From Candidatus Andersenbacteria bacterium RIFCSPHIGHO2_02_FULL_46_16 (GTDB lineage Bacteria > Patescibacteriota > Andersenbacteria > UBA10190), in the NCBI GenBank assembly GCA_001817065.1, contig MHHQ01000029.1, positions 4,049 to 68,048 of the forward strand: DNA of 64,000 nt, given 5' to 3'. Every line of letters begins with the position of its first letter. The stretch's first letter is position 1. The notes below the pieces were generated by a model. The model was given only the letters and a program-made list of their open reading frames with translations. It was not told the DNA's origin and searched no databases. This document shows positions 13,252 through 34,668 of this stretch, in pieces. The translations under genes and the position numbers were made by a program.

Positions 13252-14556
13252 TCAAAGCTCAAATTCTTCTGTATAAATATCCCTTTTAGCTACACCCTCT
13301 TGCAATAACTGCATTTTTAAACTAGCCATCATTGGACCAGGTCCACAAATAAAAAACGAGGTTCCCTTTAAGCTGCCGTTAGTCAGCTCCTTGATCTTTT
13401 GCGCTGTCAGATACCCTCGCTCATCTGAAAACCATACAGTTAGTTTTAACTTTCTCATCGCCTCCTTCTCGATTGCGTATAGATCCTCCAACGCAAACAG
13501 CTCACGCTTGTTACGAACGGCAAAAAAAAGATTAATGTCATAGCCATTATTTGTTTCCGCGCGCAGGTCGCGGCTCATCCCCATAAAAGGCGTCATGCCT
13601 ATTCCCCCTCCTACCCAAACCTGTTTCCTGTGCCTGCTCCAACCGAAATTGAATCTGCCATACGGCCCTTGTACCTCCACCGCCGTCCCCGGCTTTAACC
13701 TCGCCAAAGACTGAGAAAAGACTCCTAAATCCTTCACCGTGATCTCTAAATGATCATCGTTTGATGCGGACGAAAATGAAAACGGATGACTCTCAGCTCG
13801 AACTTCCCCATTAATAAATTTGAACCAGCCAAACTGTGCCGACTGATAGCGCATAGCCTCCTGGCCAGCCACCATGACAATCCGCCAGACCGCATCATTT
13901 AACTTTTCTACCCGCTCCACCAGATACCGATATTTCTTATGCGCATTGAAAATCGAATGCCTGACATACAATACCAAAGCTACTGTCGCTAAACCAAAGA
14001 TATATGATCTTAGCCACCAATTTTGTGCGATATCACTTGGTATCAAAAATGCATGCCAGCCACCCAATAAAAAAGCTGCTGCTAAAAATTTATGTGTCAT
14101 TTTCCAAATTTGATATTCCGGCCGTAAATAAAACGTTAGGACCAACAAACTGATCATTACCAGCAGCGCCGCCCAACCTAAAAACAACACTAAGCTTGCC
14201 AACGGCCAAATTATCGCAGCTGCCGCTACCACGGACACTGGCAACACCGCCATCGCGCTAAACAACGGATGGAATAGTAACAAAATTAATGCCGTCCCGC
14301 CTAACCAATGGTGTAATATATATACTCGATTCAATCCGCCAAAATAATTTTCTAGCCAAGCCACTCTGGCACCCAATATCAGGACGAGTGAAAACAACGT
14401 CATGCCGACTAAACCGGACAACTGTGCTAAAGAAACCATGGTCGCTCCAAAGCCGCCAAATCTTACCAACCATGGTAACATGGTTGCCCAAATCATCACC
14501 GGCCATAACGCTAAAACCAATATCGCCAAGGGTCCGATTTTTTGTTTACTTACCAT
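13252..14556 (-). CDS. ferric-reductase-like transmembrane oxidoreductase with FAD/NAD(P)-binding FNR-like domain
   Basis: N-terminal six-TM region with conserved His residues, followed by an FNR-like FAD/NAD-binding module (HPFSFSS, GPYG, VWVGGGIGMTPF). Confidence 0.75.
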   Translation of the reverse strand: MVSKQKIGPLAILVLALWPVMIWATMLPWLVRFGGFGATMVSLAQLSGLVGMTLFSLVLILGARVAWLENYFGGLNRVYILHHWLGGTALILLLFHPLFSAMAVLPVSVVAAAAIIWPLASLVLFLGWAALLVMISLLVLTFYLRPEYQIWKMTHKFLAAAFLLGGWHAFLIPSDIAQNWWLRSYIFGLATVALVLYVRHSIFNAHKKYRYLVERVEKLNDAVWRIVMVAGQEAMRYQSAQFGWFKFINGEVRAESHPFSFSSASNDDHLEITVKDLGVFSQSLARLKPGTAVEVQGPYGRFNFGWSRHRKQVWVGGGIGMTPFMGMSRDLRAETNNGYDINLFFAVRNKRELFALEDLYAIEKEAMRKLKLTVWFSDERGYLTAQKIKELTNGSLKGTSFFICGPGPMMASLKMQLLQEGVAKRDIYTEEFEL

Positions 14557-14653
14557 ATTTATAAGCTCCCTTCACAATAGTGACTCCCCACCTATAAATC
14601 CAGCTGATGATGATTAAAGACAAAAAAGGCCAACACCATGAAAGCAAATATAT

Positions 14654-14917
14654 GGAGCCCCACCCCGCCGCAGGCGGGGCGGTCCCCGCGATAACGTGGC
14701 ATCCCGCCCCCTGGACGGGGTGGCGGAATCCCGCGTAGCAGCCAACTGTCAATCCCACTTGCTCCGCTATCGGCGGAGCTACCCTCCCCCTTGCTCACGG
14801 AGCTTTGAATGGCAGCGAGGGATTGTCCCATTCGCACCTTGTCGACCAAAGCCTTGGCGACGGCTGATTCATCCACCCCCGCCACCGGCGGGATGGTTTT
14901 CTGCGCAGTGGGATAAA
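14654..14917 (+). repeat. GC-rich structured repeat, family 2 copy A
   Basis: About 75% identical to 27124-27315 and 47046-47311. Conserved blocks GGCGGAATCCCGCG, CCTTGGCGACGGCTGATTCA and CTGCGCAGTGGGAT. Confidence 0.7.
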
Positions 14918-15043
14918 TCTACAACCTTTTTGCTAACGCATTCATTTCTTGTATGTATTAATTAATAACCACAGTGCGGTTGATCATCTCGGCTGTGCTT
15001 ATTTACTAATTGCTTCTGCGTGTATTTAATATAAAATTAACCG

Positions 15044-17380
15044 ATGAATGAGATACTGAGCGGCATACAAAAATACGTGCGCTGTGCTAACTACTTAACT
15101 GTTGCTCAGATTTTTTTGCAGGATAATTTCCTGCTGGAACGACCACTCCAACCTGCTGATATCAAACCTCGCCTCCTCGGCCACTGGGGATCATGTCCTG
15201 GCGTCAATTTCACCTACGCGCATTTAAACCACTTAATCAACTCCACAAAAGCCAATTTGTTGTTTGTCTTAGGACCAGGCCACGCGTTTCCGGCCATGCA
15301 AGCCAATTTATTCTTGGAAAACACACTACAGCGCTACTACCCTAAAGCTACTCACACCTCGGATGGCATTGCATATATCTCCAAGAATTTTTCCTGGCCA
15401 TATGGCTTTCCCAGCCACTGCAACCCCGGTACTCCCGGAGTAATTTTAGAGGGTGGTGAACTAGGTTATTCCCTCTCCACTGCTTACGGCGCTATTTTAG
15501 ACAACCCCGACTTAATCGTGGCCTGTCTAATCGGTGACGGCGAAGCCGAAACCGGCCCCATTAACGCCGCCTGGCATTTAAATAAATTCATCAATCCCGC
15601 CACTAACGGCGCAGTCCTTCCTATCCTCCATTTGAATGGTTATAAAATTTCTGGGCCAACCATTTTTGGCCGAATGGATAATCAAGAACTAACTGCGCTC
15701 TTCACCGGCTATGGTTATGAACCGCATATTGTCGAAGGAGATGATATCGACCAAACCATGCAAGACACCTTACAGCAAAGCTACCAAGCCATTCGTCGTC
15801 TCCAAAAATCCGCCCCAAACAATAAACCTAAGTTTCCCATGATTATCCTGAAAACCCTGAAAGGTTGGACCGGCATTAAGGAAATACACGGCAAAAAAAT
15901 CGAGGGTAATCACTTATCTCACCAAGTTGTTCTCAAAGAACCTAAGACTGACCATGAAGAACTCGCTGCCCTTGAAGAATGGCTTAGATCATACAAGTTC
16001 GAGGAATTATTTGATAAGAAATCCGGCTTTTGCACTGCAGTAACAGAGGTAGTCCCAGAGGAAAGTCTCGCCATGGGCAACAACTATCACGCATTTGGCG
16101 GCAAAAAAGTTTTCACACCACTCCAGCTTCCTCCCATTGAGCATTTTGCCGAAGATGCATCTATCCCAGGCACCATTGGTTCCAGCAGCATGCGACGAGC
16201 CGGCCTCTATCTAAATGAAGTTTTTAAACAAAACGAGCCTAACAAAAACTTTCGTTTTTTCTCCCCTGATGAAACCTACTCCAACAAGCTCGATCAAATT
16301 TTTGCTTCGACTGGTCGAGCGTTTGTCTGGCCTAGCGAAAAATGGGATGAAGACATGAGCCCCACTGGCCGCGTAATAGAAATGCTCAGCGAGCACAGCC
16401 TGCAAGGCTTAGCCCAAGGCTATGTTTTGACAGGACGACATGCCATATTTGCCTCGTACGAAGCATTTATTCAGGTCATCATCAGCATGGCCGACCAATA
16501 CGCTAAATTTATCAATGTTGCCCGGGAAATTAAGTGGCGCGGTGATTTTCCTTCTATGAATTACATCCTGACTTCCTCTGGCTGGCGCCAGGAGCATAAT
16601 GGTTTCTCTCATCAAAACCCCGGTTTTATCGACGACATGTTGCAGCGCCAAGGAAATTTTGTAAACGTATTTTTTCCCCCCGATGGCAACACTACCCTAG
16701 TCGCTCTCGATAGAATGCTGCGCTCGACCAAAGAAATAAATATTCTAGTCGCCGGTAAAACATTAGAGCCACGCTGGCTGACCCCCGCCAAGGCGGAGCA
16801 ACAGTTATCACAAGGTGTTATGACTTGGGACTTTGCCAGCGACCCTGATCCCGATATTGTCCTAGCTGCTGCTGGAGATTATTTGACCAAAGAAGCCATG
16901 GCCGCCATTAAAATTATCAAACAAGAAATCCCAGCCGCTAAAATACGCTTCGTGAACATCACCGCTCTCTCCTGCGTCGGACTTGGTCCCAACGACGCTC
17001 CCGTCACTCAAAGTATGTTTGAGGAAACTTTCACTCCCGATAAACCTGTGATCATTAACTTCCACGGCTACCCCCAGACGATCAAGCAAATACTCTTTGA
17101 CTATAGCGACAATAATTCCCGATTCACTGTCCACGGTTATATCGAAAACGGATCCACCACCACTCCCTTTGACATGCAAGTGCTCAATGAAACCAGCCGC
17201 TACCAATTAGCCATGGATGCTTTTACTGCCCTAGCCACCCAAGACGTCATTAGTCCCGCCCGGGCTGCGCAGCTTACCCGAAAATACCTGGATAAATTAT
17301 CTGACCATCATGCCTACATCAAGCAACATGGCACTGACTTACCAGAAATAAGTGATTGGCAATGGACCCAAAATATTTAA
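15044..17380 (+). CDS. xfp: phosphoketolase (xylulose-5-P/fructose-6-P phosphoketolase)
   Basis: 778 aa. TPP-dependent phosphoketolase signatures (GHWGSCPG, EGGELGYSLSTAYGA). Confidence 0.9.
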   Translation: MNEILSGIQKYVRCANYLTVAQIFLQDNFLLERPLQPADIKPRLLGHWGSCPGVNFTYAHLNHLINSTKANLLFVLGPGHAFPAMQANLFLENTLQRYYPKATHTSDGIAYISKNFSWPYGFPSHCNPGTPGVILEGGELGYSLSTAYGAILDNPDLIVACLIGDGEAETGPINAAWHLNKFINPATNGAVLPILHLNGYKISGPTIFGRMDNQELTALFTGYGYEPHIVEGDDIDQTMQDTLQQSYQAIRRLQKSAPNNKPKFPMIILKTLKGWTGIKEIHGKKIEGNHLSHQVVLKEPKTDHEELAALEEWLRSYKFEELFDKKSGFCTAVTEVVPEESLAMGNNYHAFGGKKVFTPLQLPPIEHFAEDASIPGTIGSSSMRRAGLYLNEVFKQNEPNKNFRFFSPDETYSNKLDQIFASTGRAFVWPSEKWDEDMSPTGRVIEMLSEHSLQGLAQGYVLTGRHAIFASYEAFIQVIISMADQYAKFINVAREIKWRGDFPSMNYILTSSGWRQEHNGFSHQNPGFIDDMLQRQGNFVNVFFPPDGNTTLVALDRMLRSTKEINILVAGKTLEPRWLTPAKAEQQLSQGVMTWDFASDPDPDIVLAAAGDYLTKEAMAAIKIIKQEIPAAKIRFVNITALSCVGLGPNDAPVTQSMFEETFTPDKPVIINFHGYPQTIKQILFDYSDNNSRFTVHGYIENGSTTTPFDMQVLNETSRYQLAMDAFTALATQDVISPARAAQLTRKYLDKLSDHHAYIKQHGTDLPEISDWQWTQNI

Positions 17381-18537
17381 TCGTCAATCCCGGCAGCGCT
17401 TCTAAAAAATACGCCCTCTATCAAGGTGATAAAGAAATCTACTTTGCTCACTTTGAAACGGTGCAAGATCAGCCTATTGTCACCTTCAAATCTGCAGACT
17501 CGTCGGTTAAAGACCAGATTGAACCAGCTATCTTTGCCTCCGCCGTTGACTTCTTTCTACAAAGGCTTATGACGAAAAAAATTATAACCGACCAGGCTGC
17601 CATAGCCGCTATTGGCATTCGTGTCGTCGCTCCCGGCAGCATCTTCACCCAGCATCAAATTATCGATCAGAACTATCTACAACATTTATCCGACGAGCGA
17701 GCCAGTGCCCCGCTTCATCTAAATCCTTTATTAGAGGAGCTTGAGCAATTAACCGCCGTCTTTCCAAAGCTCCCCATTGTTGGTATATCCGACAGCGCTT
17801 TTCATACCACCATCCCTGCAGCCAGCCGCCACTATGCCATCTCTTTTTCCGACACTACCCAGTTAGATCTACATCGTTTTGGTTATCATGGCATTTCCGT
17901 ACAATCCCTCCTGCCTAAAATTCAATCCTTACTCGGCCAAGTGCCGCCCCGCGTTATTGTTTGCCATCTGGGAGGCGGTGCTAGTCTTACCGCCATTCAG
18001 GACGGCAACAGTATCGACAACTCTATGGGTTATACACCGCTGGAAGGTTTAATCATGGCGACGCGCGTCGGCAACATCGATGCGGGTGCCCTTATCAAAC
18101 TGTCTCAAGCCAAAAATTTAAGTTTGACTGAATTAGAAGAATATCTAAATACTCGGTCGGGACTCCTTGGCTTGAGCGAATTAAGTGACGACATCAGAAA
18201 ATTGCTAAAGCTTGAAAATGAAAATCCTCAGGCTAAGCTAGCCCTGCATGCTTATGTTAATACCATAAAAAAGTATATTGGCGCCTACACCGCCATCCTT
18301 AACGGTTTGGATCTGCTGGTCTTCACAGCTACGATTGGCGAGCGATCAAGCATTATCCGTGCCCGCATCTGTGTCAATCTTGACGGGCTAGGCATACATT
18401 TAGATCAATCAGTTAATGACCATATAGACAGCACCAACGCTATCATTAGCACCACGGACTCGCCCGTTACCGTAGCCGTCCTTACCACCAACGAAATGCA
18501 GGCTATCGCGCAGCAAATGCGACCTTTGTTAGACTAA
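17356..18537 (+). CDS. ackA: acetate kinase
   Basis: Acetokinase N-terminus (LIVNPGSASKKYAL) and internal HLGGGAS motif. Start overlaps xfp by 25 nt. Confidence 0.85.
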   Translation: MAMDPKYLIVNPGSASKKYALYQGDKEIYFAHFETVQDQPIVTFKSADSSVKDQIEPAIFASAVDFFLQRLMTKKIITDQAAIAAIGIRVVAPGSIFTQHQIIDQNYLQHLSDERASAPLHLNPLLEELEQLTAVFPKLPIVGISDSAFHTTIPAASRHYAISFSDTTQLDLHRFGYHGISVQSLLPKIQSLLGQVPPRVIVCHLGGGASLTAIQDGNSIDNSMGYTPLEGLIMATRVGNIDAGALIKLSQAKNLSLTELEEYLNTRSGLLGLSELSDDIRKLLKLENENPQAKLALHAYVNTIKKYIGAYTAILNGLDLLVFTATIGERSSIIRARICVNLDGLGIHLDQSVNDHIDSTNAIISTTDSPVTVAVLTTNEMQAIAQQMRPLLD

Positions 18538-18670
18538 ACTAAATTCCGCGGCAACGCTCAACAAGTCTTTCCCTCGATTTAACCAATAGCCTAACTACAA
18601 ATCAAAAAACCGCCAAACCAAGTAGCGATTTTATTATCGTTTCATCAATTGTCACAATAAACAGTAGAGT

Positions 18671-18991
18671 TAGGCACCGTCGAAAAATAACTTGGCCAGA
18701 TCTCGTTCAATCTGCGCCGAGATACGGCTTTTCCAATTGCCTGCCGGCCATAGCTTTCTTGACCACCGTAGCCCTGTCTGCCGTCAGGCAAGGTTTAGCG
18801 AAGGTGGTAGCGACGGCTGGAGCGAACCAGGAGCCGTAGCCAAGCTACGGTGAGTGGTTCGCGATTGCCTGCCCCGCGCCGTGCCCATCCGTAGCCTTGC
18901 GCGAAGGAGGGTAGCCTTGGCGTAGTGGGGAGAAAAAATCGTAGATTGCATAGTGGGCGAGAGACGGTTAAGTTATTTTGAGACGGTGACT
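18671..18991 (+). repeat. MITE-like element, family 1 copy 1 (longest, about 320 bp)
   Basis: Terminal inverted repeats (GCACCGTCGAAAAATAACTTGGCCAGATCTCG / CGAGAGACGGTTAAGTTATTTTGAGACGGTGAC). Internal sequence shared with copies at 22260 and 41945. Confidence 0.7.
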
Positions 18992-18998
18992 AAAGCCG

Positions 18999-21900
18999 TT
19001 AACTGTCACGAGCTACCGCCGGCTCAATGTGTAGCAGCGTTGCCTGGCTCACTATGTGATAATGGTCAAGAATTGTACCCGTCGCTTGCATAATGCCTGT
19101 AACCTTCACCGCCGGCAGCCCAAAAACATCATTGATTACGTCTCCCGTCTGGCTAAAAATTCCCTCTGCCCGCATATTTTGCGCTTCCAAAGCACCAATT
19201 ATCATTTCGCCGTTGTTAACTGGCAATTCTCCTTCCGCTAACTGGATATTTCCCTCATTAAAACTGTTAACACCTAAAAATAATTTGGGCACACCCTTGG
19301 TAAAGTTAACCCTGGTTATGCCTTGCGCAATATATTCGCTGATTAGCGCTCTATTTTTCTCCTGTTCAATCACCATAGCACTCGTCTCTATACTGCCTTG
19401 TGCCTGTTCCGCTACTGTTGGTTCACCAACCACTGGGGTTGTCGCTGCCACTTCATTCTTCTCGCTCTCCGCCCCTACTTGCTCAGGCATCCCTGCTTCC
19501 GCAACCAGTTGTTCTTGTGCCGCTATATCTCCGGCCTTACCGGTTGTTTGTTCTGGTTTTTCCATTTGCGTTTCCTCCACTACCAACTCACCTTCCGGCA
19601 TATTCGCTTCCGTATTCAATCCCGCAAACCCCAAAAACAGTCCGGTAAAGACAATAACCATAACCGCCGGCGCCGCCGCTGACATCCAATTCTTTTTGTT
19701 TGGTTTAAATCCGCGCAGGAGTAGCGAATTACCCACCACAGAAATCGAGCTAAAAGCCATGGCTAATCCAGCCAGTTCCGGCCGCAAAACTAATCCGAGA
19801 CCAGCAAATAGTCGCGCTGCCACCGGAATACCAATCACGTTATAAAACAGAGCAAAAAACATATTTTGCTTGATTTTGCTCATTGTTTCTCTTGATAACT
19901 GGATAGTCGTCAGAACATCATTCAAGTCATTCCTAATAATTATTATTTCACCCGTTTCCAAAGCAACGTCTGTTCCTGAACCCATGGCAATACCTAAATC
20001 AGCCTGCGCCAACGCCGGTGCATCATTTATACCATCGCCCACCATCGCGACCATTTTGCCCTGCTCTTGCAACTTCTTCACTTCATTGGCTTTGTCTTCT
20101 GGCAACACTTCTGCCAACACATTCGTCATGCCAATTTCTGCCGCTATCGCCTGCGCCGTGCGTCGGTTATCACCCGTAATCATATAGACCACAATCCCCA
20201 AATCTTTTAGTTTCTGTACCGCCGCCTGAGCGCTGGGTTTAACCGTATCAGCCACCGCGACCAAGCCGATAATACTCCGCCCAGAGGCCAGGATCATGAC
20301 CGTCTGTCCCCTATTCTCTAGTCGCGTCATGTCTTCTTCTATATCAGCCACATTCAATCCGGCTGCGACAATCAAATGACGGTTACCAAAATAATATTTT
20401 TTTCCAGCCATAGTACCCACAACGCCCTGGCCCGGTACCGGTGCAAAATCTGCTACCTCCAAGAAATCACTTTTCTGGTCCTGGGCATACTGGTAAATTG
20501 CTTCCGCTAAAGGATGCTCGGATGAACGTTCCAATGAGCCAGCTAACTGTAGCAGTGTTGCATCATCTGCTGCTTGGTAGTTAATGAGCGCTGTCACCGT
20601 AGGCTTTCCATTCGTTAGAGTTCCTGTCTTATCGAACACTATCGCATTAATTTTTCTCACCTTTTCCAGCGGTTCACCACCTTTAATCAGAATACCGTGC
20701 TCCGCCCCTTTACCTGTGCTGACCATAATAGCGGTTGGCGTTGCCAAACCAAGCGCGCAAGGACAAGCGATCACGATGACCGCCGTAAAAGCCATCAAAG
20801 AAAAAGCCAAGGTAGCCCCCAGCACGAAATACCACACTACAAATGTGGTGATAGCAATTACGATAACCGCCGGCACAAACCAGGCTGAAATGCGATCCGC
20901 CAACGCCTGCACTGGCGCCCTCGACCCCTGCGCATCTTCAATCAATTTAATAATCTGTGCCAACATTGTTTCCCCGCCCACTTTAGTTGCCTCAAGCTCA
21001 AAACTGCCATTCTTGTTCATAGTAGAACCGATGACTGTATCCCCTGGGTGTTTTTCCACTGGCAGACTTTCGCCAGTTATCATCGCCTCATCCACCGCCG
21101 ATGATCCGCTAGTAATCACACCATCTACTGGAACAATTTCTCCCGGCCGCACAATCACCGTATCTCCTACTACTACTTGCTCAATCGGCAAGTCCACTGT
21201 TTGATCGCCTCGCACCACTCGCGCCGTCTTAGCCTGTAAGCCCATTAGCTTCTTAATGGCTTCCGAAGTTCGCCCTTTCGCCTTGGATTCTAAGTATTTC
21301 CCCAACAATACGAAGGTTATTAAGAAAGCTGCAGTTTCAAAGTATAGGTCAGGTATCATTTTTCCCGCCTCGGCAATAAACGAGCCAGCATTTAGCACAT
21401 ACGCGCCAAAATTGTAGAGGCTGTAAAAGTAAGCCGTTGAAGTGCCAATCGCAATCAAGCTATCCATATTAAATGTTTTCATCCGCAAACTAGACCATGC
21501 GCCCGCATAAAAACCTGCCCCGATTACAAACTGCACTGGTGTCGCCAGAATAAAGGAAACCAATCCCGCATAGGGCAGAATAAAACTCGTTCCCGGCAGC
21601 CACTTAAAGAATGTCTGCAGCATAAAATACAGCATCGGCAGACTCAGCAGCAGTGCATAAAAAAACTTTTTCTTTAACCGTGCGATCTCTTTAGCTTTCT
21701 TTTCCTCGACCTGTTTAGCATCCCCCTGATCAACCGGCATTGCTTCATAACCTGCCTTTTTCACTGCTGTTATTAAATCGTTCACCGAGACCGTGGCCGG
21801 ATTAAAGACTACCGACGCCTTCTCGACAGCAAAATTTACGTTTGCTTCCAACACACCCGGCCGCTTCTTTAATGACCGCTCAATAATCGCCGCGCAGGAC

Positions 21901-22241
21901 GAACAATGCATACCGGATATTAACAAGGACGCACGCGTCTTACTTGCCACTTCTGGTTTAACTAGCTTGGCAGCTTCCTCTTTGGGGAATAAAAGCTTTG
22001 CACTCGTTCCTCTCTCACTCATGTCACCCATTACAGTCGCTTGATATCCCTCTTTGCTTATGACCGTAATAATCTGCTCCGGCGAGATCGAACTGTCATC
22101 ATACTCAATAACGGCATTTTTTTTCTGATAGCTTATCTCCGCCTTACTCACACCTCTTAATTCCTGAACAGCTTCTTTTATTAACAGCTCACACGATCCG
22201 CAGTGCATGCCATTAATGTTTAGCCTTATTTTCTTTGTCAT
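18999..22241 (-). CDS. copA: Cu(I)-translocating P1B-type ATPase with two N-terminal HMA domains and a C-terminal extension of about 250 aa
   Basis: Two GMHCxxC HMA domains. CPC transmembrane motif, [15 protein letters not shown]. An extra TM plus acidic linker plus globular domain follow the normal ATPase end. Confidence 0.9.
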
Positions 22242-22259
22242 TATAATTTTTTGCTAATT

Positions 22260-22441
22260 TAGGCGCCGTAAATAAATAACTTGGCCAGATCTCGTTCAAT
22301 CTGCGCCGAGATACGGCTTTTTCGATTGAGCGAAATACGAAGCGTAATAGAACTACGGTGAGTGTTTCGCGATTGAGAAAAAGTCGCAGATTGGTGCATA
22401 GTGGACGAGAGGTGGTTAAGTTATTTATTTACGGTGCCTTA
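22260..22441 (+). repeat. MITE-like element, family 1 copy 2 (about 182 bp, internal deletion)
   Basis: TIRs TAGGCGCCGTAAATAAATAACTT and AAGTTATTTATTTACGGTGCCTTA. Flanked by GCTAATT on both sides, which looks like a 7-bp target duplication. Fills the whole copZ–copA intergenic region. Confidence 0.7.
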
Positions 22442-22639
22442 GGCTAATTGATAAGGCGTATCAGCCAATGCTTGCTTGATCACATCAGGCTTAAACTCCT
22501 GGTCAGCCACTATTATAGTCTGGCCATCCACCTTAACATCTACATCCTGTACGTTAGGTAAACGTCGTAAACGCTTTTGCACCATTTTAACGCAAGCTTC
22601 ACAGGTCAAACCTGTTAATTGAATGTTTTGTGTAATCAT
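22439..22639 (-). CDS. copZ: copper chaperone CopZ (single HMA domain)
   Basis: 66 aa with GLTCEACV metal-binding loop. Stop codon abuts or overlaps the MITE end. Confidence 0.8.
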   Translation of the reverse strand: MITQNIQLTGLTCEACVKMVQKRLRRLPNVQDVDVKVDGQTIIVADQEFKPDVIKQALADTPYQLA

Positions 22640-22659
22640 AGAATTTATTAGGATTATAT

Positions 22660-22684
22660 ATACCTACACCTATGGTATAGGTAA
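22660..22684. promoter_or_regulatory. candidate CsoR operator (ATACCTAcacctatggtaTAGGTAac)
   Basis: Inverted TACCTA...TAGGTA arms immediately upstream of copZ. Resembles the known CsoR operator pattern (ATACC...GGTAT). Confidence 0.4.
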
Positions 22685-22709
22685 CGAACAGATCAGTCAA
22701 TAAATACTT

Positions 22710-24524
22710 TTATATCTCATTGACGACGATATTGCCGCGAGGTACGCCCATCGCACACGTGATCGGGTATGAACCGGCCTTCTTTGGTGTGAATTCAAAG
22801 GTTATCTTCTGACCGCGCCGAAAATTCTGTACATCTTCAGTCAGTCCAGGAACAGTAATGCTCCCCATACAACCAGAACCATTGTCCTTCGCATCAATCT
22901 CGAAACGAACGGGTTGATTTGCTCTTACCGTAAACTGGTTAGGCGATAAATCCGCTTTCCTCGTATAAGCAGCTTGTATAACCTGCACCTCATCTTGACT
23001 TATAGTCTCGCCTTTGGCCGGCTCAGCTTTATTAGCTCCTCCGCCACAACCGCCACAACCGCCGCCCGCGCCGCCGCAAGAACCTTTGGCCGCAGCCGGT
23101 TGATCAACGGGCTGGTCAAGTGCTATAGCTCTACCACGTGCCTCTGCCCCGTCTTTGTCTATGACATTAAATACACCGGTATACATACCCATAGCACAGG
23201 AAAAACGTATTTGCCCCGTTTCTTTCGGGGTAAATTCAATGACGTTCTCCCCTAACTGCAAATTACGCCGCACTCCTAGTTGCTGCGAATAAAGACTTCC
23301 GGCGCAACTGTTCGGATTAGTTGAATTCACAATCCATTTGACCGGAACACCTGCCTGAATTGTAAATTTGTTAGGACTATAACCACTGCCAGACTGCTCC
23401 ATCCGTACTACCTGGACGTCCTTATTATCACTTCCTTCCTGTTGAACCTCTGCTATCTGTCCTGCTCCCTGGGCCACCGTTGATAGAATTACCGGTAGAC
23501 CAGTTAAGTTTAAGCCATTCGAGATGTTAAACACCGCTAAACCAACCACCGCGAGCCCCGCCAACTTAAAGAAACGCTGCGCCATAATTCCACGTAAGGC
23601 AGAAGTAAGTCCACCCACACCCAACAATCCCGGTGTTGTACCTACCGCAAACGTCGCCATAATCAGTGCCCCCGACCAAAAGTTGCCCGTACTCATCGCG
23701 TACAATTGCATTGCTTGTGTGAAACCGCACGGCAGGAAAAAAGTCAAAACACCAACCATCGCCGCATTACGATGACTATACTCCCTTTCGTGCTTTTGTT
23801 TAATTCCCAATTTCTTACTCAAACCAGCCGGCAAAGAAATAGCCCAGCTGGATAAGCGAGGTGAAAGTTGCGTGAGCTGGATCCCTAACAGCAGCATCAC
23901 TAAGCCCACACCAATAGTTAATGCCCCAAGCAGAGTACCGGATAGTTGGAATGCCTGCCCAATTAAACCAATTAATCCGCCCAGCACAAAATATCCCGCT
24001 ATACGCCCTGCGTTAAAAAATATATGCGGACGGAATTTCTGCACCGTTGTTGCTTCTGGATGTGACTGAGCATGTTTGGCTGACATACCAAGTACCAAAC
24101 CACCCACCAAAGCCATGCAAGTAGACACCCCGGCCAGCAATCCCACCGTCAGCACAACCAATAAACTGGCCGGACTATCGCCTGGATTAAAACTGGCATT
24201 AAGAATGCCCATGCCTTTTAGCACAAAGTACAAGATTAACAGAATTCCGGCCGCTAATGCTATTTCGTCGTACTGTTTCTTGTCTGGTGTAACCCATGGC
24301 AGCGCCCCCGAATGACCCACACTATAACCAGCCTCCTTAACTGCTTCCTCCACCTTTGCCATACTTAGCCCCCCCCGGTAAGTAATTTCCGCTTCTTGCC
24401 GTCGCCGGCTGACTGACACAGTCTGCACGCCTGGCAGCTCTTTCAATTGTTCTTCTATTAATAGTTCGCATGAGGCGCAATGCATGCCTCGAATCGGTAT
24501 AGTTTTTTTATTCATGATCCTCAA
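22710..24524 (-). CDS. HMA domain – polytopic Cys-motif membrane domain – Gly/Cys linker – two cupredoxin-like domains (putative metal transporter/sequestration protein)
   Basis: N-terminal GMHCASC HMA. About eight TM helices with VSTCMA and FLPCGF motifs (DsbD_2/TauE-like). A GSCGGAGGGCGGCGGGA linker. Two C-terminal beta-rich domains with CxGS...CAMG pairs resembling Cupredoxin_1. Confidence 0.55.
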   Translation of the reverse strand: MRIMNKKTIPIRGMHCASCELLIEEQLKELPGVQTVSVSRRRQEAEITYRGGLSMAKVEEAVKEAGYSVGHSGALPWVTPDKKQYDEIALAAGILLILYFVLKGMGILNASFNPGDSPASLLVVLTVGLLAGVSTCMALVGGLVLGMSAKHAQSHPEATTVQKFRPHIFFNAGRIAGYFVLGGLIGLIGQAFQLSGTLLGALTIGVGLVMLLLGIQLTQLSPRLSSWAISLPAGLSKKLGIKQKHEREYSHRNAAMVGVLTFFLPCGFTQAMQLYAMSTGNFWSGALIMATFAVGTTPGLLGVGGLTSALRGIMAQRFFKLAGLAVVGLAVFNISNGLNLTGLPVILSTVAQGAGQIAEVQQEGSDNKDVQVVRMEQSGSGYSPNKFTIQAGVPVKWIVNSTNPNSCAGSLYSQQLGVRRNLQLGENVIEFTPKETGQIRFSCAMGMYTGVFNVIDKDGAEARGRAIALDQPVDQPAAAKGSCGGAGGGCGGCGGGANKAEPAKGETISQDEVQVIQAAYTRKADLSPNQFTVRANQPVRFEIDAKDNGSGCMGSITVPGLTEDVQNFRRGQKITFEFTPKKAGSYPITCAMGVPRGNIVVNEI

Positions 24525-24612
24525 TATTTGTTATTAAATCTTAAACCTGCTGTATTCTGAACGGTTATTCTATCACCTAACCATTCAGGTACCCCCTACA
24601 CCAGAGAAAAAT

Positions 24613-24990
24613 TTAATGAACGCGAGGATGTAATATGCCCTGCTGTAACGCTACTAGGATATAATTTTGGGGCAATAGCCAAGGATTATATGGCCAAAAA
24701 AGAGCAGCAGGCAAACGAGAACGCAACAGGTCTTGTAGATAGCTAGTTTTTGTGAACATAACCGTTAACCACCATGCCATCAGGCCTAAAAACACGGCTA
24801 AGTAATCCGGGGACGTCACCTGCAAACTACTTATTAAACTCTCAATCAAGCAAGGACTGTTACCCAAACTAGCATGCACCCACATATGACCAAAAGTCAC
24901 ACTGCAGGCTATCGGCCCAATCACCAACACACCCAACAAGAGCCAAGCTGTAATTTTTATTGATTTTCCAAAAACCATATTCATGAACAT
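24613..24990 (-). CDS. hypothetical small membrane protein
   Basis: ORF with three hydrophobic segments, inside the metal operon. Confidence 0.3.
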   Translation of the reverse strand: MFMNMVFGKSIKITAWLLLGVLVIGPIACSVTFGHMWVHASLGNSPCLIESLISSLQVTSPDYLAVFLGLMAWWLTVMFTKTSYLQDLLRSRLPAALFWPYNPWLLPQNYILVALQQGILHPRVH

Positions 24991-25027
24991 TGTGTTATTA
25001 TACCCTACCTGCCCCTACAGATAAACA

Positions 25028-25300
25028 TTACGACTTCACCCAGCGTCTATATAAAGCAACCACTGCGTACGTCCATATCCAAACTACAGCCATACTGGAA
25101 ATAAGTCCTATTAACAATGTACTGGAAGAAAATTCCTCGACGACTCCCGGTGAAACGTTAAACGTATGAAACCAACTTTGCACAATCGTGAAAAGCCAGC
25201 CTGGAACCAACCAGGAGAGTACACGACACACCACATAACCTACCCCCATCACCACCGCCATAGCATTCGCTGCCACCTTACTGTTAACCATAATTCTCAC
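25028..25300 (-). CDS. hypothetical small membrane protein
   Basis: ORF with 4-nt overlap (ATGA) with the upstream gene. Two TM segments. Confidence 0.3.
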   Translation of the reverse strand: MRIMVNSKVAANAMAVVMGVGYVVCRVLSWLVPGWLFTIVQSWFHTFNVSPGVVEEFSSSTLLIGLISSMAVVWIWTYAVVALYRRWVKS

Positions 25301-26148
25301 CTCCTATCATATACTAACCAGCGAACTAACCGGTAAACAACATAAATAAGTAGAACATAAAATATTCCGTTTATTATTGGCCATCGATCAGTCCATCCAG
25401 TCACCAGCCAAGCTGTATCGTTAACTATTTGAGCCGGTCCAGTCGGCATACTTAAGCGACCCGTAATCGCTAAACCCAACGTTATTAAACCCAAACTAAA
25501 GAACATAATAGCGGAAACCAAATTAGTGATAAACACCGGATAGTATCTGCCATCTAAATTAATAGAAAATATCCGCTTATTAAATATTGGCTTTTCTAAC
25601 AGATGAACGCGTTTGATAACTAAACCAGCTATGTACAATGGTGCTACCATACCAGCTACAAAAGCTAAGCCGACCAAAAATGCGTGCCATAAACTCGGCG
25701 ATAATGAACTTAAGGCCAAAACACCAATTAAAACTGGTGCGCAACACGCAGCCGTTATTCCAGCCGTTAGCCCTAATACATAGGTTGACAACCAGTCCAT
25801 CTCGCCACCTGCTTTTGCTGGTAAGTGAGGCATTGGGAGCTTCACACCAACCAACGACAAGATAGCCGCAGCCATCATAATAGATCCGCCGACAATATAC
25901 GTTTCAGTGTGCCAGCGAAAGAAAAAGCTGGCTAATACTTTGGCGCCCAGCACAATCGGCAGCATGACAGTAAAAATCCCCGTCGAATAAACACCTGTCA
26001 TCAGTAAGATTTTCCTTTTTTCCTTAAAGACATTCCCGAGGTACGCCGGTAAGAGGTATGAGATACAACACGGTGCAAACAAAGCGACTAGACCAGCAAC
26101 AAAAGCCGCGAGCAGTGACACTTGGTAGAAAACGTCTCCACTGCTCAT
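25297..26148 (-). CDS. CcdA/DsbD_2-like membrane protein with two CC motifs
   Basis: FAPCCISYLLP and AACCAPV within TM helices. Six to eight TM segments. Confidence 0.5.
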   Translation of the reverse strand: MSSGDVFYQVSLLAAFVAGLVALFAPCCISYLLPAYLGNVFKEKRKILLMTGVYSTGIFTVMLPIVLGAKVLASFFFRWHTETYIVGGSIMMAAAILSLVGVKLPMPHLPAKAGGEMDWLSTYVLGLTAGITAACCAPVLIGVLALSSLSPSLWHAFLVGLAFVAGMVAPLYIAGLVIKRVHLLEKPIFNKRIFSINLDGRYYPVFITNLVSAIMFFSLGLITLGLAITGRLSMPTGPAQIVNDTAWLVTGWTDRWPIINGIFYVLLIYVVYRLVRWLVYDRR

Positions 26149-26153
26149 ATACT

Positions 26154-26648
26154 CTACTGGACTACGTTAGCTGACATAGTAAGCACGATTTTTGGTTGGC
26201 GTGGATCGTTGGTCCTCATCATCGCCTGCCGTGTCACAGACCCTAGACCATTCGGACCATGAAAAGCTGGATCAAAAATAAGCTTAATAGTGGCAGCTTC
26301 ACCCGGCGGGACATTAGCCACATATGATGATCGTTCACCCATCCTAAACTCAGGCGAGATAACACTGCCCATTTCAACCTGCGCGACTGTACACATGCAC
26401 GAGGTTGTCACGTCGTATAATGCCAACGGGTCAGACCCTGTGTTACTGATTAGAAAATCAGTTATTAATAAGCCTTCATTAATACCAACGTCACCTCTTT
26501 CCTTAGTTGTTTCTGTCACAGACGCACTCACCTTCTGGCTCATCTTGACGCCAGTAGGAGTACTTAGCCTAGCAGCTAAATAAAGTCCGCCCACTATTAG
26601 TGCCACCATTCCAACCAATATACCAACTGTTAATCTGTTATTGCTCAT
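26154..26648 (-). CDS. membrane-anchored DUF1573-domain protein
   Basis: N-terminal TM. C-terminal pattern DFLISNTGSDPL...SCMCT...PGEAATIKLIFDP, typical of DUF1573. Confidence 0.55.
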   Translation of the reverse strand: MSNNRLTVGILVGMVALIVGGLYLAARLSTPTGVKMSQKVSASVTETTKERGDVGINEGLLITDFLISNTGSDPLALYDVTTSCMCTVAQVEMGSVISPEFRMGERSSYVANVPPGEAATIKLIFDPAFHGPNGLGSVTRQAMMRTNDPRQPKIVLTMSANVVQ

Positions 26649-26676
26649 TTAACTCTCCTCCTTAAAGTGACGATGG

Positions 26677-26949
26677 CTATTTATTAACCATCTTCGACAC
26701 TTTCAAGATTTCCTCAATCATCTCCTGTTGTTTTTTTTCCTGGCTAGTCATCATCGCATGGCTAAAACAGCTTTTCAAATGATCCTCCATCAACATTTGA
26801 TGGGCTGATTTTAATAAACCTAACACAGCCAAGTTTTGCTGCATTATATCTATGCAATATTTATCCGCTTCCAACATACCGACAATAGTAGCCAGATGCG
26901 ACTGGGCCTTTTTAAAGTTAGTGGATATTTTCTCGTGATTTGCTTTCAT
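26677..26949 (-). CDS. csoR: CsoR/RcnR-family metal-sensing transcriptional repressor
   Basis: 90 aa, helical, with the conserved C...H...C triad positions (CIDIMQQ...H...C). Confidence 0.7.
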   Translation of the reverse strand: MKANHEKISTNFKKAQSHLATIVGMLEADKYCIDIMQQNLAVLGLLKSAHQMLMEDHLKSCFSHAMMTSQEKKQQEMIEEILKVSKMVNK

Positions 26950-26974
26950 AATAATATAATTTAATATCTAGACC

Positions 26975-26993
26975 TTACCTATAGGTTAGGTAA
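26975..26993. promoter_or_regulatory. candidate CsoR operator (TTACCTATAGGTTAGGTAA)
   Basis: TACCTA-N5-TAGGTA inverted repeat 26 nt upstream of the csoR start. The same half-sites occur upstream of copZ. Confidence 0.4.
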
Positions 26994-27123
26994 AACTATA
27001 TTAGCACATAACCCCTATACAGAACAAGCCGCATAAATTCTCGTTCGATGGTTTCCTGCACTGACCTCCCTCACCAGTAATCTTTTGCCTCCTCAGCACC
27101 TGCTGCTACCGGAACCGCTACAG

Positions 27124-27315
27124 GAAGCCCCATCCCGCCCCCTGGACGGGATGGCAGAATCCCGCGTAACAACCAACTGTCTGCCCCACTTGCTCCGCTA
27201 TCGGCAAAGCTACGCGGGGTTATCCCATTCGCACCTTGTCAGCCAAAGCCTTGGCGACGGCTGATTCAATCACCCCCACCACCGGCGGGGTGGCTTTCTG
27301 CGCAGTGGGATAAAA
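27124..27315 (+). repeat. GC-rich structured repeat, family 2 copy B (shortest)
   Basis: Shares blocks with copies A and C. Lacks one internal hairpin segment of about 45 nt and part of the 5' region. Confidence 0.7.
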
Positions 27316-27430
27316 AGGAGACCACATCGTGATCTCCTGAAGCTCACATTTGATATCGCAAGGTGAGTTATACCTGCGCTCCTATTGCCCATATCCTATC
27401 TGGACTTGGAGAAAGAACCTGGCATTTACT

Positions 27431-28033
27431 TTACTCCTTCTCTATCTGTTGATGTTGATAAAGACAAAAGAAGGAAAACGGTCTTTGTCGGTCACAAAGA
27501 CCCTCACTGTTACCTGTCTGGTAAAGGGGGCACTCACTACCACCGACCGTAATCTCTGAAGCGAACTTCTGTGGATTGCGAATCCGTAGACCCACACCAA
27601 TCTCGGAAAAATTTGAGTGGTGAAGCTCAATATCTCCGAAACCACAACCACCTTCCTCCCAGAAAGAAGTAATGATTGCAGCACAATCATCACCCGAAAG
27701 TTCCTCGTCACCAATCGCATACCAGAGGTATTGAGGAACTTCTCCCCTATATACCTGCCGCACAAACTCCTCCTTGCCCTCCGGGTCACGCCAGTCTTTT
27801 CCGGTCAGTAAGTGCTGCGCGTTTTTGACACGCTGTCGCCACTCCTGTTTTGCCTCTTTGATCCACACCAGCGTACTAGCCATTTTAGCTTCGAACTCCT
27901 TGCGCTCCTCTCTAACCTTTACTCTCCTTGCTGACCATGTCCAAAACGAACCAAATAATGCCAGTGCCCTCATTGTTAATCCTTTCTCTCCTAAAATTCC
28001 CTCGCCCTTCGCAAAAAAACTACACATTCCCAA
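27431..28033 (-). CDS. hypothetical protein
   Basis: 200-aa ORF with no recognisable domain. Confidence 0.3.
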   Translation of the reverse strand: MGMCSFFAKGEGILGEKGLTMRALALFGSFWTWSARRVKVREERKEFEAKMASTLVWIKEAKQEWRQRVKNAQHLLTGKDWRDPEGKEEFVRQVYRGEVPQYLWYAIGDEELSGDDCAAIITSFWEEGGCGFGDIELHHSNFSEIGVGLRIRNPQKFASEITVGGSECPLYQTGNSEGLCDRQRPFSFFCLYQHQQIEKE

Positions 28034-28356
28034 TCATCAGCAAACAACATCCTTTGGATGCCTATTGCTAATGTTCTTTTGTTGTCAAAGTCCGATCCAA
28101 ATCTGAAATTTGAACTCTTCAAGGCTAAGATTAGGACGGAACTCTCAAGAAGATTGATAAATCACTCAATATTCTATTCTTTAATGTGATACATGTCAAG
28201 TACTCCATGTGTATAAAAGCTAAACATAGCTGTTATATTCACATTCAGGTATCCACTACCCTAGATATTAGCTTTTAAAAAAGGCTACTAAAATCCAGCA
28301 ACCCCTGTTTCTACCGGTCAAAACGCCCGGCCACTCCTATCTGACCTGCGCGAAAG

Positions 28357-28824
28357 CTATCGTGTAATTATGGCCATATTTCTTACTGCATTTGGGGCAA
28401 TAAGCATAGTGGAAATAATCTTTTTACCGTCTTTCCTTTTCCCGCCACATACATATCCATATCCTTTAATCCATTTTGGTACCGCGCTATATGGCCCATC
28501 ATACACTTTGCTTAAAAATTCCCCCGTAATCTTAGCCATTTTCTCCCCCGGCACATCTTTGCTAATAGTCATATATATTTCTGACCGCCATGGCGACGAA
28601 TTATAGCTAAGCATCAAAAAATCTTTCCCTTCCGGCATAGCCTTAGCATGCTCAATCTTTTTGAACATACGTTTTACTACCTTCCCCATGTTTACGGGTA
28701 TATGAAAGATTTGCCGCACATCATCCCGTAAAAATAACTTATCCCGCCAAAGATACCGCTGCTTCTCGAACCTCGTCGGATCAAATTCCGGGCAACAGAC
28801 ATCTGACTCTGTCATACATTTCAT
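28357..28824 (-). CDS. hypothetical protein (Cys-containing, 155 aa)
   Basis: ORF with no recognisable domain. Confidence 0.3.
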   Translation of the reverse strand: MKCMTESDVCCPEFDPTRFEKQRYLWRDKLFLRDDVRQIFHIPVNMGKVVKRMFKKIEHAKAMPEGKDFLMLSYNSSPWRSEIYMTISKDVPGEKMAKITGEFLSKVYDGPYSAVPKWIKGYGYVCGGKRKDGKKIISTMLIAPNAVRNMAIITR

Positions 28825-34349: not shown

Positions 34350-34668
34350 TAACTTTTACTGCCGTTCCGTATGCCATCATTTCCGAAGCTCCAGACATGA
34401 CGGTTGATGTGGCAAACCGGAAACCAATAATCGCATCGGCTTCCAGTTTAATCGCTTCATTGACCATCCTATTATAAGCCTCATCTCGCGCGGTCGTGGT
34501 CATCTCTGTATAAATCTTTACTTCACCTCCGATTATATTCTTGATCAAAGCTCCAATATCCCGACCAATATTCCTGGCCCTAACAGTATTTCCCCTAACC
34601 ACTCCAACCACCTTAGTGATTTTTTTATTCGGAACCTCATTTCCCGTTGTAACAATTATTTCTGACAT
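34342..34668 (-). CDS. YbjQ/DUF74 (UPF0145) family protein
   Basis: 108 aa with the typical GEVKIYTEMTTTARDEAYNRMVNEA...DAIIGFRF pattern. Overlaps the ATPase start by 8 nt. Confidence 0.7.
   Translation of the reverse strand: MSEIIVTTGNEVPNKKITKVVGVVRGNTVRARNIGRDIGALIKNIIGGEVKIYTEMTTTARDEAYNRMVNEAIKLEADAIIGFRFATSTVMSGASEMMAYGTAVKVSD

Follow-up and report, generated by a model that had tools for sequence, protein, structure and literature searches.

What do five extra genes lying between a csoR repressor gene and the copZ chaperone and copA pump genes contribute to the handling of copper? The question is raised by a 64,000-nucleotide (nt) stretch of contig MHHQ01000029.1 (assembly GCA_001817065.1, positions 4,049 to 68,048), referred to here as the window, from Candidatus Andersenbacteria bacterium RIFCSPHIGHO2_02_FULL_46_16. 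Candidatus Andersenbacteria belongs to the candidate phyla radiation (CPR, also Patescibacteria) and is uncultivated. The locus in question, an eight-gene cop cluster, is supported as a copper-homeostasis or detoxification system. As outlined below, its CsoR regulon probably combines CopZ/CopA efflux with a conserved, uncharacterised thiol-based module in the cell envelope, and thiol-based handling at the membrane or outside it is the best reading of the five extra genes.

The cluster consists of eight successive minus-strand open reading frames (ORFs) at 18999-26949, read from the ORF list and its translations. The same eight genes are found in the public gene calls of six independent assemblies of the same species, in agreement with a preliminary description of the window which had placed eight minus-strand genes in a row. 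The series begins with csoR (26677-26949), encoding a CsoR-family repressor of 90 residues, followed by a gene for a DUF1573 protein (26154-26648) with an N-terminal membrane anchor and an Ig-like (ASH/PapD-like) domain. Next come a 283-residue, CcdA-like membrane protein with two Cys-Cys pairs (25297-26148; hereafter the CC-protein), a small two-helix membrane protein of the DUF5676 family (25028-25300) and a 125-residue membrane protein that belongs to no family (p125; 24613-24990). The last of the five extra genes encodes a 604-residue fusion of an HMA domain, a DsbD_2 domain and two cupredoxin domains (22710-24524). The series ends with copZ (22439-22639), for a 66-residue HMA-type Cu(I) chaperone, and copA (18999-22241), for a P1B-1 Cu(I) ATPase, all on the minus strand. 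The 283-residue CC-protein is identical in Rifle groundwater assemblies (GCA_001817175.1, GCA_003501005.1 and several metagenome contigs). Gaps of 5, 28, 37 and 88 nt separate genes of the cluster, with 70 nt before copZ and 197 nt before copA. The tight packing with 4-nt overlaps that had been described is not found: at most one such overlap exists, between the DUF5676 and CC-protein genes, and it needs a GTG start that the public gene calls do not use.

Three of the eight products form the classic CsoR/CopZ/CopA set, as had been recognised early on, and the matches and Cu(I) motifs bear this out. CsoR matches Pfam PF02583 at 60.7 bits against a cutoff of 22.8 (E = 1.9e-16) and the RicR-like model of NCBIfam at 1.3e-11. 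Its translation contains the ligand set C32, H57 and C61, an x-C-H-C fingerprint whose 25/4 spacing we take to be that of C36/H61/C65 in the CsoR of Mycobacterium tuberculosis. This fingerprint argues against a CstR, RcnR or FrmR-type paralogue, and Cu(I)-dependent derepression by the window's CsoR is predicted. CopZ carries the motif GLTCEAC and matches the Pfam HMA model (33.4 bits, cutoff 24.8); its best NCBIfam matches are CopZ-family models, at scores below threshold. For CopA, two HMA domains and an E1-E2 ATPase domain are found in Pfam, and NCBIfam TIGR01511 is matched at 624.8 bits against a cutoff of 397. The motifs CPC in transmembrane helix (TM) 4, N-x6-YN-x4-P in TM5 and M-x2-SS-x5-N in TM6, together with two GMHCxSC HMA domains, read as the full P1B-1 Cu(I)/Ag(I) signature. 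Beyond these three, the assignments to DUF1573 and Cupredoxin_1 made in the preliminary description also stand in Pfam, as do those to CsoR and HMA.

The pump itself has an unusual end, which the preliminary description does not mention. According to hydropathy, an extra hydrophobic helix (residues 851-879), the ninth, follows the canonical last helix and leads into an acidic C-terminal extension of about 200 residues that ends in a rare domain of about 110 residues. The whole region (residues ~851-1080, window positions 18999-19691) thus runs from helix to acidic linker to terminal domain, the latter with the pattern PKLF...NEMIxGxxEA...GDxIxxxFGxPxxKVxGIxxxTGTxLDxYHIV. The domain is kept in seven of the related loci retrieved for comparison, which carry L numbers here (L087, L052, L055, L064, L068, L075 and L080), and in some of them is duplicated in tandem. 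No Pfam or PDB sequence match to the extension was found, and an exhaustive search of 1.84 billion proteins returned just 115 representative clusters with the domain, which occurs at the C-termini of P1B ATPases or in stand-alone tandem proteins of about 250 residues. A GAF-like fold is hinted at by a match, in several stretches, to a multi-GAF protein. Provided that the extra helix is real, the domain would lie on the extracytoplasmic side, an unusual place in a P1B ATPase. Outside the cluster, at 32121-34668, the window encodes another copper pump; it is a CopB-type P1B ATPase (CPH motif) with an N-terminal heavy-metal-binding domain (HMBD) and a His-rich stretch, and its gene is translationally coupled to that of a YbjQ_1 'putative heavy-metal-binding' protein. 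In the relative L087, the equivalent CopB-type ATPase lies inside the cop cluster.

Are the eight genes then under one control? Upstream of csoR, a predicted promoter and a candidate CsoR operator occupy 26971-27027 on the minus strand. The promoter has a -35 element TTGTTC (27022-27027), an 18-nt spacer and a -10 element TAATAT (26998-27003), and just after it lies the palindrome TACCTAACCTATAGGTAAGGTC (26971-26992), candidate operator 1, which occurs once in the window where none is expected by chance. Equivalent palindromes stand in the same place upstream of csoR in L087, L088, L089 and L007, as the variant ACCT..CCTA.AGG..AGGT, and many other CPR loci have the canonical CsoR box ATATCCCCTATAGGGGGATAT or variants of it at that place. 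Compared with the ATCCCC/TACCC box of most other CPR loci, the window's operator half-sites are of an ACCTA..ACC variant. A second predicted promoter with a candidate operator is found on the minus strand at 22661-22700, in the 70-nt gap before copZ. Here a -35 element TTGACT (22695-22700) and a -10 element TACCAT are separated by 17 nt, and candidate operator 2, the palindrome TACCTATACCATAGGTGTAGGTA (22661-22683), overlaps the promoter and is closely related to operator 1. The geometry TTGAC(T/C)-17-TACC(A/C)T, with the palindrome, also lies upstream of copZ in L087, L088, L089 and L007. The presence of CsoR-type palindromes before both csoR and copZ points to two co-regulated transcription units rather than one operon, with putative operators governing csoR-to-fusion and copZ-copA. 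Of the single operon first proposed, the run of genes on one strand is thus retained, while the second promoter-like site and its palindrome speak against a single unit.

In these respects the locus resembles the CsoR-CopZ-CopA regulons known from Gram-positive bacteria, such as copZA of Bacillus subtilis, csoR-copA-copZ of Listeria monocytogenes and cso of M. tuberculosis. They have in common a CsoR with x-C-H-C ligands, an HMA chaperone and a P1B-1 ATPase with CPC, YN and MxxSS motifs; they likewise have palindromic operators overlapping promoters, which in the window are candidates, and a csoR gene that is apparently autoregulated. The window differs in the five genes between csoR and copZ, in a repeat element within the copZ-copA spacer, and in the extra helix and C-terminal domain of CopA.

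The first of the five genes encodes the DUF1573 protein, which matches Pfam PF07610 at 38.1 bits (cutoff 26.1) and the NCBIfam model of the OS_HP2 (seleno)protein at 45.2, below the cutoff of 100. Its homologues were first sought by a word-indexed single-protein search, which gave 6 matches, and the search was then redone with alignment. The invariant residues are the two cysteines of TSC84xC86T (TSCMCT), M103 and the histidine of FDPxxH130GP. DUF1573 has been described as a selenoprotein family, the selenoprotein form of which bears a UGC motif (PMC9312934). In the portions of the literature available to us, it otherwise turns up in work on vesicles of T. forsythia and on iron deficiency in Bacteroidetes. 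No functional study of DUF1573 was found in the searchable literature.

The CC-protein is more difficult to place. At E<=0.01 neither it nor its Streptomyces mirabilis homologue matches any Pfam family, including DsbD (PF02683); NCBIfam gives a weak match to TsoB only, and homology to MerT, MerF or MerC was detected in neither database. A profile of the family does match the CcdA of Thermus thermophilus (5VKV, E = 2.7e-9), with one Cys of each CC pair aligned with a catalytic Cys of CcdA helices 1 and 4. Two motifs are invariant, FAPC27C28 (helix 1) and SAC135C136APVL (helix 4). About seven helices, with the N-terminus outside and the C-terminus inside, are predicted from hydropathy and the positive-inside rule, and the AlphaFold2 model is of moderate confidence (pLDDT 68.6). 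The protein had been called DsbD_2-like, a label that holds for the DsbD superfamily, given the CcdA profile match, and fails for DsbD_2 itself, to which there is no Pfam match. Membership of DsbD_2 (PF13386) was also rejected by hhalign, in which the CC family against the DsbD_2 domain of the fusion was not significant, so that the two are not close paralogues. There are more than 2,000 homologues, some of which are named 'CcdA' by their sources. Five of the top 120 contain the HMBD PF19335, and in the three HMBD-bearing homologues that were aligned this domain is C-terminal.

The fusion brings together parts that can be read individually. Pfam finds an HMA domain with CxxC, a DsbD_2 domain (112.6 bits, cutoff 24.9) and two Cupredoxin_1 domains, arranged as HMA, one extra helix, a six-helix DsbD_2 unit with Cys in STCMA and LPCG, and two cupredoxins resembling CupA. 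Ligand residues are C...CxMxM in the first cupredoxin domain and CxMxV in the second. Domain 1 matches CupA of Streptococcus pneumoniae (2MRY/4F2E) at 4.8e-11, with the ligand Cys and Met residues aligned, and the metal-binding domain of S. pneumoniae CopA (4F2F) at 5.6e-10. With hydropathy used to place the loops, about 13 Lys/Arg fall on alternate loops and none on the others, which by the positive-inside rule places the HMA domain inside and the cupredoxins outside; the predicted topology is therefore a cytoplasmic HMA and exofacial cupredoxins. The pneumococcal CupA/CopA proteins (4F2E, 2MRY, 4F2F) have in common with the fusion the Cupredoxin_1 fold, the aligned C...CxMxM ligands, a membrane tether and a gene encoded with CopA. 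In contrast, CupA is a single, cytoplasm-facing domain on an N-terminal anchor, whereas the window's protein has two domains, predicted to face outward, after a seven-helix HMA-DsbD_2 part.

Two tiny membrane proteins, already noticed in the preliminary description, complete the set. The DUF5676 protein (Pfam PF18926, 5.3e-12) has a conserved Cys in helix 1 and an SWxH motif. The other, p125, is conserved in three relatives (L087, L088 and L089, at 35-63% identity), with C29, H35, H39, P46-C47 and a C-terminal NYxLxAL..GxLHxRV as invariants. No match to it was found in Pfam or NCBIfam, nor by tblastn in 80 wider loci; p125 is real and lineage-specific.

Do the extra genes belong with the copper genes, or are they chance neighbours? 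A scan of one genome per species gave at least 586 loci with relatives of the CC-protein, of which the best 80 were compared by tblastn of the window's proteins. Nearly all of these 80 are labelled as CPR (Microgenomates lineages, WWE3, Saccharibacteria and Parcubacteria); among them are 'binchicken' metagenome-assembled genomes labelled Gammaproteobacteria/Pseudomonadales, which we suspect to be mislabelled. Synteny was counted in the 50 of the 80 loci whose sequence extends 5 kb or more to either side of the CC-protein homologue. Within 5 kb of it, DUF1573 is found on the same strand in 49/50 loci and copA in 41/50 (45/50 within 10 kb); csoR follows with 30/50, the cupredoxin with 24/50, and DsbD_2 and DUF5676 with 21/50 each. 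To these must be added a protein of about 309 residues, p309, which lies within 5 kb in 44/50. The usual CPR order is csoR - DUF1573 - p309 - CC-protein - DUF5676 - CupA-like cupredoxin - copA - DsbD_2/cupredoxin - HMA. It had been proposed that DUF1573, the CC-protein and the DsbD_2/cupredoxin protein belong with the cop genes, a proposal that a lack of co-occurrence in related genomes would have overturned; the co-occurrence proved very strong.

The p309 protein is membrane-anchored and Cys-rich, with an invariant RPCCGNSTxFPDCNHGMA and a C-terminal GGxCG, and belongs to no Pfam family. It is present in 67/80 loci (for example at 9065-9994 in L041, and in L039, L060 and L063), mostly between DUF1573 and the CC-protein. 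It is not homologous to the 300-residue protein encoded upstream of DUF1573 on plasmid pSinB. Relatives also vary in what is inserted into the cluster. In L087 (70% identity) a CopB-type ATPase, a SHOCT protein and a membrane-anchored DsbA-like protein (CPFC) have been inserted, and many relatives (for instance L041) have a separate gene for a 119-residue CupA-like protein that the window is without. In L041, from Daviesbacteria, an ArsR-type regulator and a MerA-like flavoprotein disulfide reductase with a C-terminal Cys-Cys pair (13894-15749) form a mercury module inserted between copA and the DsbD_2-cupredoxin gene of the copper cluster.

Parts of the same set are carried by plasmids of cultured bacteria, and the co-occurrence reaches copper islands on plasmids of Actinomycetota and Pseudomonadota. 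A tblastn search of PLSDB placed the double-CC subfamily (APCC + SSCCAPVL) on plasmids of S. mirabilis P16B-1, Burkholderia contaminans, Rubrobacter tropicus and others. The S. mirabilis and B. contaminans contexts contain CueR or CopC/D with P-type ATPases, and that of R. tropicus is a metal-resistance region with a CDF transporter and DUF305. On these plasmids the double-CC gene is directly followed by a membrane-anchored redoxin and then by a glutaredoxin/thioredoxin-like protein, and is often preceded by DUF2933; a CQPC motif was read in the redoxins of S. mirabilis and B. contaminans. DUF1573 of the TSCMCT type lies between DsbE/TlpA and SCO/DsbA/CcdA on pSinB of Sinorhizobium sp. M14 and on a Jiella plasmid, adjoining a P-type ATPase and PCuAC in the former and a mer gene cluster in the latter. 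Streptomyces and Deinococcus plasmids have a DsbD_2-cupredoxin gene with a small HMA gene directly after it, a pair that also occurs in CPR. For gut Firmicutes, HMA-DsbD_2 proteins (COG2836) have been predicted to belong to the CsoR meta-regulon (PMC4938975), and cupredoxin/DUF2933 and small membrane protein genes adjoining copA have been catalogued in Alteromonas (PMC8478169). These COG2836 proteins and CopA-cupredoxin-DUF2933-ICMT clusters have parts like those of the window and are themselves uncharacterised; the window's version differs in uniting all three parts in one protein of 604 residues, with the cupredoxin duplicated.

Database names would suggest something else. In RefSeq the plasmid double-CC proteins are annotated 'cytochrome c biogenesis protein CcdA', and the DsbD_2-cupredoxin proteins are annotated 'sulfite exporter TauE/SafE' or members of that family. 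Taken at face value, such names favour the explanation that the accessory genes serve housekeeping functions (cytochrome c biogenesis, sulfite export, surface Ig proteins) and happen to be neighbours of cop genes. This explanation is very improbable in view of the same-strand adjacency in 41-49/50 loci across many CPR lineages, the recurrence of the same genes in copper islands of unrelated phyla, and the fusion of HMA, HMBD and CupA-like domains to these very proteins; moreover, none of the contexts examined showed genes for cytochrome c maturation. Both names, borne by plasmid proteins encoded in copper or metal-resistance regions, are probably misleading.

What, then, might the module do? 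Binding of Cu(I) at C32/H57/C61 of CsoR would free both operators, and CopZ would pass cytoplasmic Cu(I) to the P1B-1 pump CopA for export. On the outer face, Cys-rich sites, namely the CxC, Met and His of DUF1573 and the CupA-like cupredoxins of the fusion, would handle exported or incoming copper; the DUF1573 protein and the cupredoxins may bind Cu(I), and may also, or instead, repair copper-damaged surface thiols or protect them. The CC-protein, and probably also the DsbD_2 domain, would link these exofacial thiol sites to the cytoplasm. The link would most likely consist of reducing equivalents passed outward, as CcdA does for ResA/Etrx and ScsB for ScsC/CueP, so that the exofacial cysteines stay reduced and competent to bind copper. 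The CC-protein would then transfer electrons from cytoplasmic thioredoxin outward. In this scheme the topology, the binding of copper by DUF1573, the transfer of electrons or of metal and its direction, and the co-regulation of the two units are all matters of prediction. The preliminary description had spoken of periplasmic or membrane Cu(I) sequestration or thiol-based handling. Its thiol-based handling fits the present evidence, whereas 'periplasmic' does not: CPR cells are commonly considered to have no outer membrane, and 'extracytoplasmic face' is therefore preferred.

Four observations favour a thiol relay of this kind: the homology to CcdA with both of its cysteines, the redoxin partners on plasmids, the plasmid location of TSCMCT-type DUF1573 between DsbE/TlpA and SCO/DsbA/CcdA, and the DsbA-like protein of L087. 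CcdA/DsbD, ScsB-ScsC-CueP of Salmonella and CcdA-Etrx/ResA/TlpA have in common with the CC-protein the CcdA homology, the location in copper-stress loci and exofacial Cys partners. The CC-protein differs in that each catalytic Cys is doubled to a vicinal pair, in its extra C-terminal helices, sometimes with an HMBD, and in falling below the Pfam DsbD thresholds. Its partners in CPR are also different, being the Ig-like CxC protein DUF1573 and p309 rather than thioredoxin folds.

Those same vicinal pairs suggest the main alternative, in which the CC-protein, the fusion or both move Cu(I) itself across the membrane by thiolate exchange in the manner of MerP/MerT, with DUF1573 and the cupredoxins as exofacial donor or acceptor sites and the HMA and HMBD domains as cytoplasmic ones. 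We consider this possible, though unlikely. The CC-protein has two invariant Cys-Cys pairs, then Pro, in its membrane helices, and these presumably resemble the SACCLGP motif of MerT. An HMBD lies at the predicted cytoplasmic end of some CC homologues, the DsbD_2 protein is always accompanied by an HMA domain (fused or in the next gene) and a Cu(I)-type cupredoxin across the membrane, and the conserved Cys/Cys/Met/His set of DUF1573 is typical of Cu(I) sites. The likeness to MerT/MerP extends to the vicinal Cys-Cys-x-x-Pro membrane motif, a small exofacial Cys protein, cytoplasmic HMA-type domains and the logic of thiolate exchange. The CC-protein, however, has no detectable homology to the MerT family in Pfam or NCBIfam, the window contains no merA or merR gene, and the regulator and pump are copper-specific. 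The family's homology is to an electron transporter, CcdA, and the closest cultured relatives are followed by CxxC redoxins, which are classical acceptors of reductant. Furthermore, an importer would be counter-productive under a promoter derepressed by copper, and a second exporter beside CopA would meet no obvious need. Transfer of electrons and transfer of metal are computationally inseparable here.

A bolder form of the same idea can be put forward tentatively, with low confidence. The CC-protein, DUF1573 and, in most CPR, p309 might constitute an unrecognised transmembrane Cu(I)-thiolate relay, a copper counterpart of MerP/MerT that evolved from an electron transporter and moves or sequesters surface Cu(I). 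The fusion might likewise be a second conduit, conceivably handing Cu(I) from its cytoplasmic HMA domain to the exofacial CupA-like sites without ATP. If true, the two would represent a class of copper transporter that is new, common among CPR and also carried by metal-resistance plasmids of cultured bacteria.

Copper may also be questioned as the metal concerned. HMA domains, HMBDs and Cys-rich sites are not exclusive to copper, L041 has an ArsR-type regulator and a MerA-like reductase in its cluster, and mer genes are near in the Jiella and Deinococcus plasmid contexts, all of which could speak for another thiophilic metal (Ag, Hg, Cd or Au) as the main target. This is improbable given a CsoR with the Cu(I) x-C-H-C ligands, a CopA with the full P1B-1 Cu(I)/Ag(I) signature and cupredoxins that match the Cu(I) chaperone CupA. 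In the plasmid contexts, too, CueR, CopC/D, multicopper oxidase, PCuAC and SCO predominate. The mercury reading was rejected because a MerA-like gene occurs in just 1/80 loci.

Care must be taken with thiol-based handling as well, and several points weigh against it. The window's own cluster encodes no partner with a thioredoxin fold, which leaves the CxC of DUF1573, a non-canonical candidate, as the proposed electron acceptor. Disulfide relays do not usually have vicinal Cys-Cys pairs, which are typical of sites for thiophilic metals; such pairs favour direct handling of metal, as does the C-terminal PF19335 of some members of the CC family. The AlphaFold2 model of the CC-protein gave no significant match in a Foldseek search of the PDB. 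No homologue of p309 was found anywhere in the 64-kb window, and since most relatives have one, the module may be incomplete here. Finally, the topologies follow from hydropathy and the positive-inside rule, the operators are assigned by similarity and conservation, and the roles of the accessory proteins are read from sequence in an uncultivated host.

Repeats raise a separate question, namely whether the cluster, or copA within it, arrived as a mobile cassette. Two repeat families are present in three copies each, with 75-92% identity over 100-240 nt, far beyond chance. Family 1 resembles a miniature inverted-repeat transposable element (MITE). Its copy 1 (18670-18991, body 18673-18990) lies 8 nt downstream of the copA stop codon, copy 2 (22259-22441, body 22262-22438) lies between copZ and copA, and a third is found at 41946-42185. 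Family 2 is GC-rich, with copy A at 14681-14919, copy B at 27131-27316 and a third copy at 47071-47312. Copy B is upstream of the predicted csoR promoter, at a distance of more than 100 nt, and hence outside the transcription unit. It was thus rightly seen at the outset that the locus is bounded by family-2 copy B and family-1 copy 1, and that family-1 copy 2 sits exactly between copZ and copA. Family-1 elements are variable in size (183-322 nt), with terminal inverted repeats (TIRs) GGCRCCGTAAATAAATAACTT of at least 21 nt and TA/TTA flanking duplications on all three copies; in copy 2 the right-hand TTA flank is the complement of the copZ TAA stop codon. Copy 2 folds into a single hairpin of the whole element (-71.5 kcal/mol, z = -10.5). 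Family 2 is partly palindromic, and its copy B folds modestly better than shuffled sequences (z = -2.96). The repeats are not known RNA families, since the whole window gave no match in Rfam at the gathering threshold and no tRNA with ARAGORN.

The idea of a composite cassette, with copA or the whole block brought in and mobilised by flanking direct repeats, came from the preliminary description. It draws on the position of copA between two family-1 copies of the same orientation, on the 14.7-27.3 kb block between two family-2 copies, on the TIRs, TA/TTA duplications and dispersal of family 1 in other metagenome contigs, and on an ISAzo13 transposase gene at 11368-12549. Comparison with relatives makes it extremely improbable. 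In L087 and L089 (70-71% identity) the same fusion-copZ-copA order is kept with a copZ-copA gap of 11-16 nt and with neither repeat family present, and in more distant CPR loci copZ is also directly upstream of this type of CopA. The element was thus inserted into a pre-existing copZA unit. Each family-1 copy has its own TA/TTA duplication, indicating independent single insertions, and all six repeat copies fill the largest intergenic gaps. No transposase is carried by the repeats, and neither the window nor the fetched loci yielded an autonomous element whose ends match those of family 1, the ends of the ISAzo13 element (a DDE transposase, PF07592, 5e-127) not having been compared with the TIRs. 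Three pairs of family-1 and family-2 copies, 4-5 kb apart, were considered as cassette borders and rejected, as the copies fill the largest gaps and are absent from relatives with the same gene order.

By its features, family 1 is a genuine MITE-like element that was inserted late. In L088 (88% identity) the contig breaks inside a family-1 element, and eight further copies were found in metagenome contigs with unrelated neighbours; the 17-mer TIR scan that found them gave mostly chance matches, with 8/112 fetched stretches being true copies. Like MITEs of the IS630/Tc1-mariner kind, family 1 has a small size, TIRs, TA/TTA duplications, a hairpin, dispersed copies and presence or absence between relatives; it differs in that no cognate transposase was identified and in being lineage-restricted among the loci searched. 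Phosphoketolase and acetate kinase genes (15044-18537) lie between family-2 copy A and family-1 copy 1 (14681-18991), where the repeats look like gap-filling rather than a cassette. In L126 (1413-2097) and L203 (3096-5659) the two families are about 180 nt apart, and the adjoining sequence resembles window positions 6273-6521. Both families, perhaps together with a third segment, could belong to a single larger element or mark common insertion hot spots.

A few features of the wider window can be recorded alongside. In L088 (1571-1755) 184 nt separate an ABC-F gene from csoR, compared with about 1.9 kb in the window (27431-28824); the longer stretch holds a Bact_hydrolase gene, a 200-residue ORF that belongs to no family and family-2 copy B, and represents an insertion relative to L088. 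Beside family-2 copy A, positions 13252-14556 encode a membrane flavoprotein resembling ferric reductases (Ferric_reduct, FAD and NAD domains, NOX-like), which could be a metal (Fe/Cu) reductase tied to the metal theme of the region. GC skew is strongly negative (about -0.1 to -0.4) over some 51 kb (1-51000), whatever the gene strand. From 51-52 kb onward (51000-64000) it is close to zero, G+C falls to 0.30-0.42 and many plus-strand ORFs start. This break may reflect a replication-strand effect together with a foreign island.

How bacteria without an outer membrane handle copper outside the cytoplasm is poorly understood, and in CPR, which account for a large share of bacterial diversity, the subject is almost entirely unstudied. 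The sensor, chaperone and pump of the present locus are a known set, and a MITE can evidently occupy the spacer between chaperone and pump while leaving the unit unbroken. Added to this set is a conserved, uncharacterised, Cys-rich accessory module. As judged from gene neighbourhoods, a double-CC CcdA-like protein, a DUF1573 protein with CxC, often p309, DUF5676 and the DsbD_2-cupredoxin-HMA proteins form a conserved module that accompanies copper pumps in at least a dozen CPR lineages, and parts of it recur in the plasmid copper islands of Streptomyces, Burkholderia, Rubrobacter, Sinorhizobium and Deinococcus. The analysis provides a functional hypothesis for several domains of unknown function and flags probable misannotations, and the existence of homologues in cultivable hosts makes the hypothesis testable at the bench.

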